A DNA stretch of 62,167 nucleotides, the filler included, from Stramenopiles sp. TOSAG23-3 (lineage: Eukaryota): NCBI GenBank assembly GCA_900128585.1. It is 14 parts of 14 records of this genome, joined end to end, with 100 filler letters (N's around TTAATTAATTAA, not from the genome) between each part and the next. Parts side by side here need not be neighbours in the genome. Positions count along the whole stretch, not along the records: positions 13,411 to 17,763 come from LT643858.1; 13 more parts are not named here. One strand, 5' to 3'. The notes beneath the pieces were generated by a model. The model was not told the DNA's origin and ran no database searches. It worked only from the letters and a program-made list of their open reading frames with translations. The translations under genes were made by a program, and so were the position numbers. Shown here piece by piece: positions 13,309 to 20,031 of this stretch. Position 1 is the first letter of the stretch. The number at the start of each line of letters is the position of its first letter.

Positions 13309-13851
13309 GCNNNNNNNNNNNNNNNNNNNNNNNNNNNNNNNNNNNNNNNNNNNNTTAATTAATTAANNNNNNNNNNNNNNNNNNNNNNNNNNNNNNNNNN
13401 NNNNNNNNNNACTCAAGTCAATTAATCCAGTTCAAGCGACAAACGTTTAATAAATAACTGGGAAGGTATTTATTTGCAAAAGATTTTTTTAAAATCAAGT
13501 GTGAACCGAAGTATTTATATTATACCGGTTTGCTGTAGGCTGTGTAGCACGGTCGCAAAAAAAAAAGGAACCTCCAGGGGGGGGGGGGGCATAAAGTGTC
13601 AGTTTTAATGTTAAGCCCATGCTATTTTTTTAGATTTTTTAGATTTGTTTTGGCGTGTTGGATCTTCTCCCAATTATAGTTTACAATACATAAGATCCGT
13701 AAACTTTGACCCACGTCTTCACAACCGGCATCGTTCATCGAACAAAGCCTGCGGATTCGTCAAAACACTGCAATACCAAATTCTGTTTAAAAAAATACTG
13801 CAATACCAAATTCGGTTTTCCTCTTTTTCCAACTCTTTGTGTCATTTAACG

Positions 13852-16800
13852 ATGAAGCACTGTCAAGCCCTGGTCATCGGTCTCTTTTGCATTTTGTATG
13901 TTTCCACGGGAGTGGTCGCGAGGCGCAACGATGCAACGTTTGAAAAGCAAAATATCGAAAGCTTTCTTCAAATGAAGGCAACAAGAAGGTCAAGTGCGGC
14001 TGGAGAATCCCCTATGGGTAACATGATGAAAAACAAAAAAGCCACCAGACAAGAAGAAGCCAAAGAGATGAGTGATGGGCTATACAAGCGGCTGAAGGCT
14101 CAGCTCGTCTCGTACGTTGATGGGGACAAAAAGTTAAAGGGACCACGGGGTGCCTCAGGACCCACCGGTGATCGTGGACGAGATGGCAGAGATGGCCGGC
14201 CGGGTCAAGACGGGTCCAACGGTGCGAGAGGCCCAAAAGGCGATAAAGGTGACCCTGGAAGCAAAGGAAGCGACGGGCTTGGTCTGCGCTTGCGAGAGTT
14301 CAGGTCGCACTCCAAGTACGCACCAGGCGATTACGTATTTGCCAAGTCCACAAAAGGCGACCACAGCACAATGTACGTCGCGGAGAAAACCTTCGTTGCG
14401 AAAAAATTACCGTCCCAAGACTTGGGAAATTGGGATGAGTTTGAAGCTCCAAAGGGTGAGAAAGGAGACAAAGGTGAGCCTGGCACAATCGGAAGTGACG
14501 GCCAGCGCGGTGACAAGGGAGAGCCAGGCATCGCTGGGCGAGTCGGCAAGCCCGGAAGACAAGGCAATAACGGAGAAAAAGGTGCTACCGGAAACGATGG
14601 AGAAAAGGGCGACCCGGGGAAAGACGGGGATACTGGACCGCAAGGTCCCAAAGGCAGCGACGGGAAAGCCGGTGCCAAGGGTGATAAAGGCGACGATGGA
14701 AAAAAGGGCGACCCGGGGAAAGACGGGGATACTGGAGCGCCCGGGACCAAAGGAAGCGACGGGCTTGGTCTGCGCTTGCGAGAGTTCATGTTCCACACCA
14801 AGTATGCACCAGGCGATTACGTATTTGCCAAGTCCTCAAAAGGCGACCACAATACAATGTACGTTGCGGAGAAAACCTTCGTTGCGAAAAAAGTACCGTC
14901 CCAAGACTTGGGAAATTGGGAAGAGTTTGAAGCTCCTAAAGGGGAACAGGGGGACAAGGGGGAAAAGGGCGATGCGGGGCCGCGCGGAGAAAGTGTTCGA
15001 GGTAGCCCGGGTCCCACTGGTAAGCAAGGGAAGCCTGGACCTAGGGGGCGCCCTGGGAAGGATGGCGAGGACGGAGAAGACGGCCCGAAAGGCCAAGCCG
15101 GTGCGCCTGGAAAAGAGGGGAAAGCAGGGGCCCCTGGTAAAGAAGGGAGAGTATTCGCAGCGGCGTACCAAGTCGCCATGCGAAGAGTGTCGAAAGACAA
15201 GAGTATTGACGAAGATGTCCCTGCAGTATTCAAGACCTCGTTGGACACCGCGAAGGCAGCTGTGGGCTCAAGCGTCGTGGCTTCGAAGCTTGCGGACCGC
15301 TCGGAAAGAGACGCCCTTAACACTTTCTCCCCCAAGTTGGTAAAATTCTCCAAGGAATCGCGAACGATAGATTCCAAGTATAAATCGGAGCAGGTGATGC
15401 TCAACAAAGATATGGAAGAAACTTCAAGTACGATTACCATTCAAGGACGAAAGGAGGTTATGGTCAAGTATTCGAAATTGAAAAGTGTCGGCCACATGTC
15501 CATTTATAACAATAAGTTTGTAGAGCGCATCGAGTTTCCAGAACTGGTCAGCGTCGGGAGACTGCAAATATACAACTGTCCGAACCTGAAAGAAATCTAC
15601 TTTCCGAAACTGAAAGAGGCCGACAACATTCAGATTTACAAAACGAAACAGTTAAAATGGGCCTCGTTCCCGAGCCTGACCGAGGTGGCAAACGGTGTAC
15701 AAATAACGACGGGCAGCAAAACAATGGAGTTTGTACACCTCCCATCCCTTGAAAGCACAACGAGCCTGACCGTTTATGACAGGAAGCTAAAGCGAGTGTT
15801 CGCCCCGGTGCTGAAGGAAATCGAGGGAACTCTGAACGTTTATGGTAGACGCCTCGAGGCATTGAACTTTCCCAAGCTTCGAACCTTGAACTCGTGGAAT
15901 AACTTGCCGTCTGGCACGAGAACGCTGGAGCATATTAATTTTCCAAGCTTGGAAGAAGTGCCCTCGATTTACATCAGCGCATTGAGATCGCTACGATGGG
16001 TGTCTTTTGCGTCTCTGTCCTCTACGAGCAACATACACATCATAAACTGCCGCAACTTGGAATCGGTTTCGATGCCGTACCTGGACCACACGACAAACGG
16101 CCTGAATATTTACGGAAACCGCAAGCTGAAGGAGATTAGTTTTGTTTCATTAAAGGAAATCGAGAACAGCGGGGTAAACGTTTACAACAACAAGAAAATG
16201 AAACGCCTTTCCTTTCCCGTGCTCAAGACGATCCATGGTAGAATCTACGTAGCTAATAGCAAGGCACTCGAGCGTTTGGATTTCCCTGCGCTCACGTCTT
16301 GCACAAAATGCAATATCCAGTTTTTAAACTTGAAAAGCATTAAAAAAATTGAACTCGACAAATTGAAGGAGGCTGATAGCTCAGTTACAATTACTTCGAA
16401 TTCGAAGTTGCGAAGCATTTCGCTCAAATCGTTGGTCACGGTGGAGACGCATTTAAATATAGGCCAGAACAAAAAGTTGGAGCGTCTGTCACTCCCCGAG
16501 TTGAAAAAGGTTAAAAACTTGCAAGTGCAGCAGAACCCAAAATTAAAGGCGTTGAATTTACCCTCCTTGAAAAAGGCAGATCAGGTCTATGTGTACCAAA
16601 ACCAGGACATGGAAACCACTTCTATGGAGAGGCTTGTAGAGGTCTCTAATTTCCAGGTCGTCAGCAATGGGGATCTGATATCGATGGGCTTCCGTAGCTT
16701 GAAAAAGGTTGAAAAGCAGTTCCGAGTAACCGACCTTCGTTCACTGAAAAAGTTCTCGTTCCCATCGCTTGAGTCCACGGAAGGTTGCCTGCAACTATCA

Positions 16801-17763
16801 AGTTTCCGACGGCTGGAAGCAATCGACTTGCCGAAGATTACGGAAGTGCAGTGCGTGACCATAAATGGCAATCCGAAATTGAAAACAATTTCTATGCCCT
16901 CGTTGGTGAGCCTGACGAACGATTTTCAGATTAATAACGACGGAAAGTTACAGACACTTGAACTTCCGCGCTTCCGTGAATGTCGAAATTTTTACGTCAA
17001 CATGAACAGGGGTGACACGGAAAAGGTATCCTTTCCGGCATTAAAAACGGTCAATAACTTCAATGTAAACCTGCAGTACCTGGGAGATTTGACGACCGTG
17101 TCGTTTCCTGTCATTGAAACGATACATTCTTTACGCCTTTCTTACAACGGCAAGTTGAAGAAAGTGTACTTTCCTAAACTAAAATCTGTGAGACAAACCT
17201 TATATGTTGGCTACAACAGGGCCTTGGAGTCATTGGAGGGGCTGATAAAACGGTTAGAAAGGGTTGATAACTCATTGCAGATACAGCGTAATGACAAGCT
17301 TAAGGCGCTTGAATTTCCGGCCCTCGCGAACCCCCCGAGGAATTTGTACATGCCAAGTATCTTGAGCCCACAATTGGAAATATTAAGACTTCCTTTGCAA
17401 AAAACATTAAAAGGAGGTGTGCAAGTCTCAAACAGTGGAAATCTGAAAGTTCTTGACCTGCCAAAACTGACAACGGCATATGGTGGTGTTAATCTTCGCA
17501 ATTCGAAGCTCGTGAATCTTAATTTGCCTGCCCTGACAACGATTCAAGGTAATATATACATCTATAATAACTTGAAACTAGAAAAGGTGAACTTACCAAA
17601 ATTAAAATCAATGTCGGGTTCGAACCCGTCTATTGCGCTGCAGAACGTTAAGAAACTGACTGAGTTTGTGATGCCTAAAAACATAGACGCGACTGTGAGC
17701 GTGAGTTTGCAAAACACTGGGTTGAAACATTTTGTATACCCCAAACTGAATGTGCGAAGTTTG
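13852..17763 (+). CDS. Secreted collagen-like protein with two CBM5/12-like inserts and a long receptor-L-domain/LRR-like repeat region, 3'-partial
   Basis: Signal peptide MKHCQALVIGLFCILYVSTGVVA. Gly-X-Y tracts at about 14140-15147, interrupted twice by a ~60-aa module. More than 25 repeats of a fPxLxxV..lxixxnxxL pattern run from about 15420 to the contig end. Confidence 0.85.
14275..14940 (+). repeat. Internal duplication of the ~180-bp globular insert (14275-14454 and 14761-14940)
   Basis: Two near-identical copies starting gggcttggtctgcgcttgcgagagttca, 486 bp apart. Confidence 0.92.
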
Positions 17764-18125
17764 NNNNNNNNNNNNNNNNNNNNNNNNNNNNNNNNNNNNN
17801 NNNNNNNTTAATTAATTAANNNNNNNNNNNNNNNNNNNNNNNNNNNNNNNNNNNNNNNNNNNNTACCGAGTACGTAATAATATTACCTGATACCGCTTAC
17901 TATCAGGCTGTATAATAGAAAAATAAAAAAGAAGAATCAAATTATTCTACCGTATCATACCAGTACGGTACCCGGTACAGGTACCTACCAGGTACGGAAC
18001 GGAGACGGTTCAAGAGTAACTAAAAGAGAGGGCCAATTTTTTCAACACGGAATGAGAGTGAGAGAGGCAGGGTGTTTGTTTTTTGAAAAAGAAAAAACAA
18101 AATTTAAAAAAGACTTAACACCCTC

Positions 18126-20031
18126 TTAAAATGTTCTAGCCGAACCAACGATAGATTCTGTAGCGGCGACACTCTTTTTGAAATCATCTACGGTAATTTG
18201 AACCCCATTCGAACCATTTGTTTGTTGGGAAATATTGTTGGAAAGTAGCGCCAGCAGCTCCCGTCGCTTCCGTTCTTTAAAATCCTCTGACGACTCCGAC
18301 TGGCCAAACACCCAAGAACTCCAACTATTGTTTTCCTCTTCGATCATGCATACTGTACTCCTTTATTTTTTCTATTTCCATTCGTGTGCAGCCTAGGCGG
18401 ACTAGCAATGTTTGCAAACTATCCCAAGATTCCTCTTGCGAAACGTCAGCTGCTTTGCCTACTAAGACATCTATGACACTATCCTTGATCGGCTTCAGCT
18501 CTACAATTTCGCCAGACTCGTAAGCCGCAGACAGGCGGTTCGCGTGTGCTACAACAATTTCATAAGTTTTCACACGTTCGTCTAATTCGACCGTATTTCC
18601 CTTGGGTTCAACTTGCTCTGGCAAGGCCTCTAGTGGCTCATTTTTCTGACCTTCTAGCGCTTGGATGATTGTTTGAATTTTGCCCCATTCTTCCTCGTCT
18701 TCCTCGTCAGCTTCAAACTTATCCGCCCCGCTGGGCACGATGACCGGGCTATTGTATCCTTCAAAATTGTCGGTTGGCAGTTCTAGTTTCTTGCCAGAGA
18801 ATGGAGTCGGGGTATCCACCGCAGCTTCTAGTTTCTTACACTTTGCAAGCAATTTCGCATGTTCCAACGACAGAGATGCTAAACGTCTGGCGTACATTTG
18901 AGCAATAGACGCCATTTGACCATCTGCCTCCTTACGCGGCTTGGTAGCGGATTGTGTCATTGCTTTCCTGTAGTCAAGGGTCAACTTCAGGTGTTGTTTC
19001 GCTTGTTCAACAGCAGAGGAAGGGAACTTACCCTCGTTTGCGAATCGAGAACTATCGGCATCAAACTTTCGCATGCTGTTGAACACCGGTTTTATAGGGG
19101 AACTAGCCCCCCTCACGGACGGTGTTACGCACAAGGCATTTGAAAGATCCGCGGCTTCCAGTTTTGGCGGGCGCGCTTTTCCTGGCGAAACAATGGGCGC
19201 ACTAACCTCGCCGCTGCCCCAGGCTACTTCTTCGGGAACGACAGTGTCCGGATCCACCACAGCATCTCCAGCTTGCTTCTGTGTTTCTACATGTTGCACA
19301 CTAACGAAAGACGGGGCAGAAACGAGAGGCTCAGCCTCATCAAAGGCCTTTCCAGGGTCGCTGTTATCTGTGGTGCTTGTGTTTTCGTCCGGTGCACTGG
19401 CTCTGCCACCTTCGAACGTCACTTCTTCCTCGGGTGGCCCAGAACTATTATCAACCTGCGGCTGAAAATTTTCCCTGTATGTATGCGCATTGACCTGAGA
19501 AACAGTATAGTGAATGCTTGTTGCGCTATCATTGGGAAATTGAGGGGGCTGATTAGGGAAGGGAGAGGCTTCCGAACCAGCACTGCCAGACGGAAACGTA
19601 CGAGCTGCAGCTGGCACGAAAATATTCGGTTGGACATTATTAGCAGTACTTTCTACCCGGTCAAAGTCGAGCGTGCCCCCCCTACTTGGGGCGGCTTTCT
19701 TGAAGTCCGCGCACGGGTCACACACCACCTCCATGGAGACACCACAGGTGCAGCCCAAGCCGCACGTGCAGTCTGGGCACTTGCACTGTGTGTTCGGACA
19801 CAGCTCCTTCCCATAAGCGGTGGACGAACTTTCCATTCGTGAACTTGTCAACGTAGGAGTATTATGATCAGCAGAATTCAATGTCTCTTCTACAACCTGA
19901 CTGTTGCTAGATGGTGCCGAGCCGAAAACGCTAGCAGCGGCGTTGTTTTCTTGGGGCGAGCCAAAATATTCACCCCCGCTCGCGGGACGGCTATCAAAAA
20001 AGCGAATAGCGCCGAATCCTGGTTTCTGCAT
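18126..20031 (-). CDS. Hypothetical disordered/coiled-coil protein with embedded metallothionein-like Cys cluster; apparent +1 frameshift near 18350
   Basis: ORF 18325..20031 contains CPNTQCKCPDCTCGLGCTCG...CDPC. Overlapping ORF 18126..18347 (IEEENNSWSSWVFG...) reads as the C-terminus. Confidence 0.65.

Follow-up and report, generated by a model that had tools for sequence, protein, structure and literature searches.

What kind of protein is encoded by a protist gene that reads, in a single frame, through collagen repeats, two folded modules and a very long repeat region? The question is raised by a locus in a window of 62,167 nucleotides (filler included) from Stramenopiles sp. TOSAG23-3 (GenBank assembly GCA_900128585.1). 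Because this window consists of 14 unrelated contigs, each of ~4.35 kb, joined by N44-TTAATTAATTAA-N44 spacers, genes on adjoining parts of it do not adjoin in the genome. The collagen/solenoid gene is the sole gene on its contig. By translation, its frame opens with an ATG at 13852 on the + strand and runs for 1304 aa without a stop to 17763, which is the end of the ~4.35-kb contig, not of the gene (the N spacer starts at 17764). The protein resembles a fibre for binding or capture whose plan follows a viral model.

The frame has no joints in three RNA-library runs and one DNA run, and RNA contigs extend 483–563 nt past 17763. A public contig, L001, carries an ORF that is 97.4% identical (894/918) to that of the window and adds 158 aa beyond the window's contig end before its stop. 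The full-length protein would be ~1460 aa (1462 with the L001 extension), its final 158 aa being known from a 97%-identical relative rather than from this assembly. A chimeric origin of the ORF from two genes is unlikely, since individual contigs cross from collagen tract 3 into the solenoid: X6 record 27 extends as one contig from 14759, the start of module 2, into the solenoid, X16 record 5 and X17 record 13 do so from ~14900 in module 2, and L001 likewise spans tract 3 and the solenoid. The parts of the gene are listed in Table 1.

Table 1. Features of the collagen/solenoid gene, in window positions.
Feature	Position	Strand	Residues	Remarks
Probable 5' UTR	13751..13851	+		RNA-library contig starts, a weak hint
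CDS	13852..17763	+		1304 codons; 3' end cut by contig end; no intron as far as tested
Signal-peptide-like N-terminus	13852..13920	+	aa 1-23	by hydropathy alone; putative cut after VVA
Pre-collagen region	13921..14139	+	aa 24-96	conserved in relative P0029
Collagen tract 1	14140..14274	+	aa 97-144	16 triplets; overlaps first residues of module 1
Module 1	14275..14454	+	aa 142-201	collagen-embedded; CBM5/12-like fold; F-type
Collagen tract 2	14455..14760	+	aa 202-306	35 triplets
Module 2	14761..14940	+	aa 304-363	88% identity with module 1 across 60 aa
Collagen tract 3	14941..15153	+	aa 364-381 + 384-434	6+17 triplets
Linker	15154..15408	+	aa 435-519	one short helix, otherwise no structure (low-confidence model)
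LRR_5 / receptor-L-type beta-solenoid	15409..17763	+		~33 turns of 22-24 aa (Pfam, AF2, Foldseek)

The preliminary description of this locus proposed a signal peptide, three Gly-X-Y tracts enclosing two near-identical ~60-aa modules, and more than 780 aa of ~23-aa fPxL repeats, all of which are borne out at the coordinates given. The N-terminus, MKH followed by ~20 hydrophobic residues, contains the sole strongly hydrophobic 19-mer (Kyte-Doolittle maximum 2.09 at aa 4). Values stay at or below 0.79 anywhere after aa 30, and no membrane anchor or transmembrane segment was found by 19-mer hydropathy, the L001 C-terminus included. A C-terminal GPI-attachment signal of the Ecm33/Sps2 type is also absent, the L001 tail being basic and hydrophilic. 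A GPI-anchored wall protein of that type was rejected on the grounds that the complete L001 ORF lacks the hydrophobic C-terminal tail. Between the signal peptide and the first collagen tract, P0029 aligns by BLASTP from aa 37 onwards, with 43% identity across aa 37-422. An amphipathic stretch that immediately precedes the first Gly-X-Y might act as a trimer nucleation helix.

The three collagen tracts comprise 74 Gly-X-Y triplets (16, 35 and 6+17), with a 2-residue break in the third at aa 382-383. Pfam Collagen (PF01391) matches at E 2.5e-32, with 110.9 bits against a cut-off of 27.2, in four stretches. In composition the tracts are 36% charged and 10% Pro; hydroxyproline-free bacterial collagens with a charged, Pro-poor pattern do form triple helices (PMC8968730). 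A trimeric stalk would be the natural reading of the 74 triplets.

What are the modules that interrupt the stalk? The two inserts (aa 142-203 and 304-365) are identical at 55/62 aa and 171/186 nt, and they belong to a real domain family that has no Pfam model. This family has 96 representatives at E<=1e-3 and 24 at <=1e-10, with 151 module copies counted in 97 proteins. Gly1, Gly3, Tyr20, Val21, Pro46, Trp53 and Pro59 are invariant across 46 aligned copies. Of the 96 non-edge full-length copies, 86 are flanked on either side by three or more Gly-X-Y triplets no further than 12 residues away, and 34 of 42 long module carriers match Pfam Collagen. The module thus appears to be a true domain made for collagen. 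Two subtypes can be told apart, F, which includes the window copies, and W (G.W...NSMWI.Q). The C-terminal end is a Peptidase_S74 fibre chaperone in 11/42 carriers, and the heads vary widely: F5/8-type-C (five times), C1q, ephrin-receptor-like, Cys-rich repeats, beta-helix and YadA head. A stalk that is kept while heads vary is as expected for a display stalk.

The inserts had been likened to CBM5/12 modules, and here the claim holds for the fold and fails for the Pfam family. The AF2 model of the module (pLDDT 92.4) has the three-stranded sheet plus hairpin, within 40-60 residues, of CBM5/12 domains. Its best structural matches, with Z values of 6.8-7.3 that count as "middling" on the scan's own scale, include the CBM12 of Vibrio chitin deacetylase (4nyu; Z 7.3, rmsd 1.4 A, 47 aligned); the short tail fibre of cyanophage A-1(L) follows (Z 6.7, 53 aligned), and the binding domains of ChiC, ChiB and ChiA1 reach Z 4.3-5.8. 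A further scan, independent of Foldseek and covering 48,161 chains, ranks CBM5/12 modules and phage fibre domains highest. Only 42 of the chains attain Z>=2, and among the 41 of these 42 matches listed most are chitin/cellulose-binding modules or parts of phage fibres, tailspikes and injection systems. A CBM5/12-type fold for the module is therefore supported by the predicted model. Sequence support for the same kinship is marginal. Neither window copy matches Pfam CBM_5_12 (PF02839), even at E<=10. In the wider family, 7/46 members have matches at E<=1, sub-threshold and at best 1.3e-4; the best whole-protein score, for P0030 (copy 3), is 23.1 bits against a cut-off of 26.2. When the family profile is compared with PDB sequences, the top seven matches all fall on the CBM12 region of Vibrio chitin deacetylases, with E 0.0035 at best.

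Compared with solved CBM5/CBM12 domains (PF02839; 4NY2/3WX7, S. griseus ChiC 2D49, B. circulans ChiA1 1ED7), the module has the fold in common (Z 4.3-7.3, rmsd 1.2-1.9 A over 42-47 residues), as well as the motif W/F-x5-Y-x2-G-D-x-V...Y/F-x-A...P...W. It differs in a hairpin after "GDYVF" that is 6-9 residues longer, in a single Phe where an aromatic pair follows the "Y.A" strand, and in conserved G.GL and F.AP caps that join it to collagen and that free-standing CBMs lack. In the HMMER alignments, the family's one Phe stands opposite the Tyr of the "YW" pair in the Pyrococcus domain 2RTS, next to a gap, and its invariant Pro stands opposite a Trp in the Vibrio domain 3WX7. "YW"-type surface aromatics are what we take to be the glycan-stacking ligand contacts of the ChiA1, ChiB and ChiC domains.

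Beyond the linker, for which the model has pLDDT 29-49 (model residues 1-80; ~40 in the post-collagen helix), the repeat region extends from ~aa 520/540 to 1304 with 27 xPxL anchors, mostly 22-24 aa apart. Another ~6-7 turns lie beyond the contig end in L001, for a whole solenoid of ~940 residues and ~40 turns. The likeness to receptor-L solenoids that had been proposed for these repeats is upheld: Recep_L_domain (PF01030; E 3e-21, 76.1 bits against a cut-off of 21.8, five stretches) and LRR_5 (PF13306; E 7.5e-11, 42.5 bits against 27.7) both match, and the AF2 model is a solenoid with pLDDT >90 from ~aa 520 to 840. A Foldseek search of the repeat region, which had been suggested as a check, puts the BspA-type structure 4fs7 on top (E 2.4e-5). 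By VIA, 4fs7 is the best low-rmsd match (Z 18.4, rmsd 4.9 A, 322 aligned, 21% identity) at rank 4, tied with ranks 2-5, and 4fd0 has Z 16.1 and rmsd 4.8 A. No EGFR or insulin-receptor L domain is among the structure matches listed. The closest sequence relatives of the solenoid are only 23-25% identical. The C-terminus is thus predicted to fold as a BspA-like solenoid. The BspA-type LRR_5 surface proteins (Bacteroides BACOVA_04585, 4FS7; BACCAC_03700, 4FD0) have a 22-24 aa repeat like that found here, but their structures have ~14 turns rather than ~40, and the solenoid here is attached to a collagen stalk.

Is this architecture new? The preliminary description held that it was, and this must be divided: the collagen-module-collagen stalk is not new, since it is widespread in phage tail fibres, in Bacteroidota and in other marine protist proteins, and what stands as new is only the union of the module stalk with a long L-domain/LRR_5 solenoid. 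That union was found in 0/42 long carriers and 0/103 profile matches, that is, nowhere else among 145 proteins. By tblastn, the module is 36.7-41.7% identical to tail-fibre genes in 10 Erwinia and Xanthomonas phage records, and its best BFVD matches are phiEaP8 (TM 0.84) and RiverRider (TM 0.82). The RiverRider "L-shaped tail fiber protein" (AVO23141.1), identical to match P0095, is laid out as collagen-module-collagen-module-collagen-C1q head. Like the protein here, the phage tail fibres (RiverRider, Kuerle, Fifi450, phiEaP8) alternate Gly-X-Y tracts with 60-aa modules and then end in a distal binding head. The phage modules are of subtype W, whereas those here are F; the head is a solenoid here, as against a C1q-like domain or a spike with an S74 cap in the phages; and the phage fibre is a virion part without a signal peptide, whereas the protein here appears to be secreted and eukaryotic, with far longer collagen tracts. 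In the solved cyanophage A-1(L) fibre, a matching "joint" domain is reported to lie in line within the trimer. The Bacteroidota "tail fiber domain-containing proteins" (e.g. of Tenuifilaceae) make up most of the 103 module-profile matches and have the same module family in the same collagen embedding; they combine collagen, W-subtype module, YadA head and Peptidase_S74, and are encoded on bacterial chromosomes, in contigs of up to 3.9 Mb.

Collagen-stalked recognition molecules are textbook tools of animal innate immunity. Animal defence collagens (collectins, ficolins, C1q) have a secreted, trimerising collagen stalk that shows C-terminal recognition domains multivalently. The protein here has no sequence kinship with them beyond Gly-X-Y. 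Their heads are C-type lectin, fibrinogen or gC1q domains rather than LRR solenoids, and the protein here differs further in having in-line CBM5/12-like nodes and no Cys-rich N-terminal oligomerisation region that could be seen.

How might such a protein work? The sequence anatomy, the family membership and predicted folds of the parts, the occurrence in RNA libraries and the eukaryotic genomic setting are results; trimer formation, the size of the fibre, what the nodes do and what it binds are our inference. On balance, the gene probably encodes a secreted protist protein of ~1460 aa that forms a homotrimeric fibre on the phage-tail-fibre plan, with multivalent adhesion or capture as its most likely role. 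The signal peptide would route the protein into the secretory pathway, and the conserved region before the first Gly-X-Y probably gathers three chains. About 222 residues of charged, proline-poor triple helix would form a stalk of ~60 nm, given the known rise per residue. Two 60-residue modules of predicted CBM5/12 fold interrupt this stalk in each chain, so that each interruption would form a node of three small beta-domains. These nodes may be register-locking or hinge elements, and may add weak glycan contacts. Past a flexible linker of ~85 residues, each chain would become a BspA/receptor-L-type solenoid of ~940 residues and ~40 turns, and the three long arms would present the binding surface as the main recognition part. 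With neither a transmembrane segment nor a hydrophobic tail at its C-terminus, the fibre would be either released or held at the cell by non-covalent contacts. The target of capture may be particles, prey bacteria or a surface.

The gene itself seems to be eukaryotic, from an uncultured marine protist, and is apparently expressed. Could the contig instead derive from a virus (phage or giant virus) or a bacterium and have been binned with the protist? This is very improbable, even though phage and Bacteroidota fibres typically have this stalk cassette and the window contig carries no other gene. On L001, the 97.4%-identical gene adjoins an ankyrin/PDZ protein and a PTEN-C2/PH protein; the other window contigs encode dynein heavy chain, kinesin, gemin5 and SMC. 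At least two thirds of the gene's sampled words occur in 12 RNA-library runs, among 20 holders from 10 studies, and contigs from poly(A)-selected metatranscriptomes span the gene from ~100 nt before the ATG (as contigs only, which neither prove transcription nor show its level). The F-type subfamily includes five EukProt and two marine-eukaryote-transcript proteins among 20 looked up, all 13 carriers with phage-type ends are of subtype W rather than F, and a peptide-pattern search of IMG/VR returned no close relative. A phage tail fibre or tailspike proper was rejected for its own reasons: the L001 neighbours are eukaryotic, the start is signal-peptide-like, Pfam finds no Peptidase_S74 in the window protein (P0001) or among the final 211 aa encoded by the L001 ORF, and the stalk cassette is all that the two have in common.

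For a protist fibre, the division of labour between stalk and solenoid could be different from the one proposed above. The modules might be true CBM5/12 lectin sites for chitin or another beta-glycan, such that the stalk grips polysaccharide (for instance the chitin of diatoms or crustaceans, or the wall or cyst of the protist itself) and the solenoid is secondary. Chitin-binding domains are the best PDB fold matches, the profile matches to the CBM12 of chitin deacetylases are marginal but present, 7/46 family members touch CBM_5_12, and the nearest ESM-Atlas clusters (score 0.90, a lead only) are Bacillota collagen-like proteins, 86-93% of whose members have CBM_5_12; three copies per node of a trimer would also confer avidity. 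We nevertheless consider lectin sites unlikely. The window copies do not match the Pfam model, the aromatics of the solved chitin-binding domains align to a gap, a single Phe and an invariant Pro, and the family-invariant residues lie at the collagen junctions and in the core, which points to structural constraint; moreover, in A-1(L), the one solved fibre consulted on this point, the "joint" domain is reported to bind baseplate wedges and not glycan. Less likely still is a structural coat or matrix (a glycocalyx, lorica, stalk or cyst-wall fibre) in which the solenoids are spacers or self-association surfaces. Collagen stalks and long solenoids do serve as building materials too, the gene is abundant enough for assembly from many marine metatranscriptomes, and no ligand-binding residue pattern was identified in the protein. 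Against this, the protein lacks both an anchor and a cross-linking motif, and just 9 of its 1462 aa are Cys; its relatives keep the stalk and swap recognition heads (discoidin five times, C1q, ephrin-receptor-like); and the closest solenoid structures are bacterial cell-surface proteins of the BspA type. If the protein were a plain coat fibre, its interest would be modest.

What would a capture fibre of this kind mean? A phage-type stalk, made of collagen segments with small beta-nodes, would occur in a secreted protist protein and, with differing heads, throughout a eukaryotic subfamily. It is conceivable, though we think it improbable, that a marine protist lineage took over a phage or bacterial fibre stalk as a secreted scaffold with swappable recognition heads for the capture of bacteria or particles: three 40-turn LRR arms here, and discoidin, ephrin-receptor-like or Cys-rich heads elsewhere. 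If true, this would be a protist counterpart of the animal defence collagens. The protein is also a candidate for how small heterotrophic or mixotrophic flagellates grip prey or surfaces. The module family, an alignable domain absent from Pfam and set by its position between triple helices, may be useful for annotating "hypothetical" fibre proteins of phages, Bacteroidota and protists. As a case of a folded domain in line within a collagen helix, it is relevant to designed collagen materials.

Upstream of the coding sequence, RNA-library contigs from two studies start at 13751 and 13758 (X17 record 8 and X4 record 15), and DNA run X6 extends past these starts to 13411. The sequence between 13751 and 13852 contains no ATG, and it includes an exact 17-nt direct repeat (13767-13783 and 13797-13813). 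Within the gene, collagen tract 3 is polymorphic in length: 4/4 other data sets have 42 extra bases at 15016-15020, with identical extra letters in X4, X16, X17 and X6, and the first residues of L001 match this longer form.

The gene is the only one on its contig (13411-17763), and it is read from a first ATG at 13852 in a frame that remains open up to the contig end, giving a protein of 1304 aa. The preliminary description placed the feature at 13852..17763. The start and the open frame hold; position 17763 is the end of the contig, not of the gene. The parts previously described, namely a signal peptide, three Gly-X-Y tracts, two near-identical modules of ~60 aa and long fPxL repeats, were all located as stated, with the signal peptide judged by hydropathy alone. 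Indeed, the N-terminus is the sole strongly hydrophobic 19-mer of the protein (2.09 vs. ≤0.79 elsewhere). The protein matches Pfam Collagen (E-value 2.5e-32), and the repeat region lies above the Pfam cut-offs for both Recep_L_domain (3e-21) and LRR_5 (7.5e-11). Shortly before the start codon, the probable 5′ UTR contains a 17-nt sequence (ACTGCAATACCAAATTC) twice as an exact direct repeat, at 13767-13783 and 13797-13813, with 13 bases between the copies.

Features of the window protein (positions in amino acids)
Feature	Position	Description	Basis
Signal-peptide-like start	1-23	Basic residues, then ~20 hydrophobic residues	Hydropathy only
Collagen tract 1	97-144	16 Gly-X-Y triplets	
Collagen tract 2	202-306	35 Gly-X-Y triplets	
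Collagen tract 3	364-381 and 384-434	6+17 Gly-X-Y triplets	
Modules 1 and 2	142-203 and 304-365	55/62 residues and 171/186 bases identical	
Repeat region	about 520-540 to end	~33 repeats of 22-24 aa with (F/L)PxL anchors	

Where does the gene end? L001, a public metagenome contig of 8276 bp and the single relative from a pattern scan of such contigs, carries a 5′-open ORF of 1077 aa that is identical to aa 387-1304 of the window protein at 894 of 918 ungapped positions (97.4%). This ORF runs 158 aa beyond the window end, adding six or seven repeats and a basic, hydrophilic tail before the stop, so the whole protein would be ~1460 aa. No transmembrane segment or GPI-like tail was found in the whole protein, with the C-terminus taken from the 97%-identical L001. 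On L001, an ankyrin/PDZ gene and a PTEN-C2/PH gene follow on the 3′ side of the ORF; the genomic setting of the gene there is eukaryotic nuclear. Words of the gene are present in 20 sequencing runs from 10 studies, 12 of the runs being RNA libraries and some of these poly(A)-selected; evidence of this kind, consisting of contigs, indicates presence in RNA libraries, neither level nor strand, and gives no ranking of expression. Contigs from three RNA-library runs and one DNA run were aligned to the gene's contig and contain no joints, meaning that no introns were detected. The RNA contigs have their starts at 13751 and 13758, with the DNA run going on further upstream, and they reach 483-563 nt beyond 17763. 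This overhang fits L001, with 474 nt of coding sequence and the stop followed by a short 3′ UTR. Relative to the window, all four runs have 42 additional bases (14 codons) in collagen tract 3, at 15016-15020, and the first residues of the L001 ORF match the longer form. Either the tract exists as length alleles or the window assembly has collapsed part of it.

With the 60-aa insert as query, HMMER was run in full against 1.84 billion representatives and found 96 proteins at E ≤ 1e-3, 24 of them at ≤1e-10 (best 6e-38). An iterated profile over these matches yielded 151 copies in 97 proteins, with a maximum of seven per protein. When 46 copies are aligned (A1), Gly1, Gly3, Tyr20, Val21, Pro46, Trp53 and Pro59 are invariant, and the consensus is G.GL.LK.F..G..Y..GDYVF..S......SM.IA...F.A...P..D..NWVEF.AP. 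Nine of the 105 full-length copies are at protein edges; among the remaining 96, 86 are flanked on each side by three or more Gly-X-Y triplets within 12 residues. Pfam Collagen is matched by 34 of the 42 long carriers scanned. Because the conserved caps G.GL and F.AP fall exactly on the triple-helix junctions, the module looks like a unit shaped by evolution for an in-line place in collagen. The Pfam copy searched, which lacks PF26696.1, has no family that covers the module. In precomputed Pfam annotation, PF26696.1 is on 6 of 103 profile matches, all bacterial module carriers (P0159, P0102, P0169, P0191, P0199 and P0206); it is unlikely to be the module itself because so few carriers have it. 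The sole Pfam match of the insert was to NlpC/P60 (E 0.011, 16.1 bits, 35 residues around "PGDYVF"). A weak match of this kind was found in 4 of the 46 family members, and, since nothing papain-like came up among the fold matches, it was taken for a partial match by chance and rejected. A sequence search of the PDB with a single insert found nothing at E ≤ 10. The window copy of the module had no match in PHROGs, where 6 of the 46 family members match phrog_13286, "tail protein".

There is evidence from structure for the suggestion that the insert is CBM5/12-like. An AF2 model of module 1, for which short relatives were aligned over their whole length (A2), has a pLDDT of 92.4 and a pTM of 0.77. 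Foldseek against the PDB found nothing at E ≤ 1e-3 for this model, as expected for 60 residues. Its best-ranked entries were nevertheless Streptomyces griseus chitinase C and the tail fibre of cyanophage A-1(L), along with the chitin oligosaccharide deacetylases of Vibrio, at an rmsd of 1.8-2.0 Å across 49-52 columns, and Serratia ChiB, 2D49 and 2RTS. On re-alignment, 4nyu reached Z 7.3 at rmsd 1.4 Å (47 residues aligned) and the A-1(L) fibre reached Z 6.7 (53 aligned). A Foldseek-independent scan of 48,161 representative chains found just 42 with Z ≥ 2; those listed are chiefly CBM5/12 modules and parts of phage tail fibres, tailspikes or injection systems, with 4ny2 first (Z 6.8). The trimerisation domains of the multiplexin collagens XV/XVIII, at Z 2.4-3.0, were below usable strength. 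Among predicted viral structures, the best matches are fibres of Erwinia phage phiEaP8 and Xanthomonas phage RiverRider (TM 0.84 and 0.82, 35% identity, E about 1e-4), followed by phage proteins annotated as CBM5/12, ChiC_BD, collagen, C1q or S74. Evidence from sequence is thin, though it leads in the same direction: the A1 profile has the CBM12 region of Vibrio deacetylases as its seven best PDB matches (best E 0.0035). Pfam CBM_5_12 is touched by 7 of the 46 family members (best 1.3e-4), and a short-hairpin copy in the relative P0030 reaches 23.1 bits (cut-off 26.2). The window's own copies have no match to it at E ≤ 10. The fold part of the earlier suggestion stands. The models support a CBM5/12 fold for the module, and a remote common origin with CBM5/12 is probable.

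Module copies separate cleanly into two subtypes, W and F. The W type comprises 50 copies in 25 proteins, and all 13 scanned carriers with phage-type ends belong to it: 11 with Peptidase_S74 (four also with a YadA head), one with a depolymerase C-terminal domain and one with a pectate-lyase beta-helix. Among longer proteins, a profile search yielded 103 matches, mostly "tail fiber domain-containing" or collagen-like proteins of Bacteroidota, and some Bacteroidota carriers are on megabase contigs. In a tblastn search of 50,697 phage records, 10 records matched, each from an Erwinia or Xanthomonas phage; the genes concerned carry a tail-fibre annotation, and the identity is 36.7-41.7%. For example, the RiverRider "L-shaped tail fiber protein" is identical to the module carrier P0095, and its layout is collagen-module-collagen-module-collagen followed by a C1q-like head. 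A single-insert pattern scan of IMG/VR, a method that detects close relatives only, gave 22 pattern matches and none confirmed. ESM-Atlas gave Bacillota collagen proteins with true CBM_5_12 (score 0.90, a lead only). The F type comprises 78 copies in 64 proteins, the window copies among them; 20 of these proteins were looked up, and five are from EukProt, two from a marine eukaryote transcript catalogue and the rest from metagenomes. The nearest relatives, P0126 (54% identity over aa 132-432 of the window protein) and P0029 (43% over aa 37-422, pre-collagen region included), have the whole stalk in common with it, and P0029 was the sole match in a near-length word search with the insert. The ends of F-type relatives vary, from Cys-containing repeats to five F5/8-type-C domains (P0088 and P0149) or an ephrin-receptor-like region (P0054). 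Neither Recep_L_domain nor LRR_5 was found in any of the 42 scanned carriers or 103 profile matches. The stalk is therefore a common cassette, and a solenoid head on it was found nowhere else.

The receptor-L-like character of the repeats is borne out by their fold as well as by their Pfam matches. For aa 440-1304, the best relatives by sequence are L-domain/LRR_5 proteins from bacteria and metagenomes, with 23-25% identity. In an AF2 model of aa 435-840, the first ~80 residues are disordered (pLDDT 29-49) with one short helix, and the remainder is a regular solenoid (pLDDT > 90). The top Foldseek match is the Bacteroides BspA-type protein 4fs7 (E 2.4e-5). With VIA-align, 4fs7 (Z 18.4, rmsd 4.9 Å, 322 aligned, 21% identity) and 4fd0 (Z 16.1, 4.8 Å) are the sole matches with high Z and low rmsd; other LRR proteins have similar Z at rmsd 9-12 Å because their curvature differs.

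What might such a protein do? It is most likely a homotrimeric fibre that the cell secretes. Charged residues make up 36% of the collagen tracts and proline 10%, and bacterial collagens of such composition are described, in the available portion of PMC8968730, as forming triple helices without hydroxyproline. The textbook rise per residue would give a triple helix of ~60 nm, in which each module interruption would form a node of three CBM5/12-fold domains. The counterpart of the module in a solved fibre appears to be the "joint" domain of the A-1(L) short tail fibre, which, in the part of PMC10966104 consulted, lies in line between ring and helical stem of the trimer and makes protein contacts. 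This analogy favours structural nodes that would keep register, re-nucleate the helix or act as a hinge, with glycan contact possible as an extra. The three solenoid arms, of ~40 turns each, would be the likely recognition surfaces, with prey, particles or the cell's own coat as candidate targets; the swapping of heads among relatives supports the logic of a display stalk.

A true stalked lectin for chitin or glycans is a reading that we consider unlikely. In the alignments, the Pyrococcus domain has an aromatic pair that falls opposite a gap and one Phe in the module. A structural coat fibre could also be built from such a stalk and is slightly less likely still. Viral or bacterial contamination might be suspected from a cassette present in phage fibres and bacteria, but the neighbouring genes on L001 are eukaryotic, the gene is in poly(A) libraries and the F subtype is eukaryotic, making this very improbable. 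Consistent with a eukaryotic source, other window contigs encode dynein heavy chain, kinesin, gemin5 and SMC, which point to a flagellated eukaryote, as well as an MFS transporter. For the favoured display fibre, the parts are already known: collagen repeats, the CBM5/12 fold and the LRR_5/L-domain solenoid, with the stalk cassette known from phage fibres and bacteria. What is new is that the module can be recognised as a distinct family embedded in collagen, with a subtype in eukaryotes; that it occurs in a secreted protein of a protist, found in RNA libraries; and that it is joined to a very long solenoid. Searches of the full-text literature turned up no account of the module between collagen tracts or of the protist architecture. 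The available text of an eCIS fibre catalogue (PMC12923769) covers collagen shafts with beta-propeller or TNFR-like heads without mention of the module, and a phage 7-7-1 paper (PMC12796354) does not mention collagen, chitin or CBM. Hence, the proposal of an undescribed protist architecture applies to the module-solenoid union but not to the stalk.

The whole protein of 1462 aa (window 13852-17763 plus L001 2767-3232) has no N-X-S/T sequons despite containing 95 Asn, 122 Ser and 73 Thr. When its composition is shuffled, ~12 are expected, and none of 5000 shuffles reached zero. Four bacterial L-domain relatives have 4-18 sequons, close to expectation, and protist-type relatives are also depleted (none in P0126; one in P0088 vs. 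~9 expected). This may reflect selection against N-glycosylation in the secretory pathway, and constraints on repeat positions (Asn, then Lys at +2) may explain part of the depletion.

The window consists of 14 separate contigs of ~4.35-4.4 kb each, with joints of N44 + TTAATTAATTAA + N44, and gene neighbourhood across these spacers is biologically meaningless. A profile scan of the six frames of the window found no module copies besides the two known, and an Rfam search of the window gave no match. At the end of the preceding contig (12986-13310), all three forward frames are open through a low-complexity repeat that reaches the contig end and is proline/arginine- or serine/threonine-rich depending on the frame (PRPRPAPLPRP... 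in one). On the next contig, a 568-aa ORF with no Pfam match (18325-20031, minus strand) has a short stretch rich in Cys, C.C.DC.CG.GC.CG, reminiscent of metal-binding motifs.
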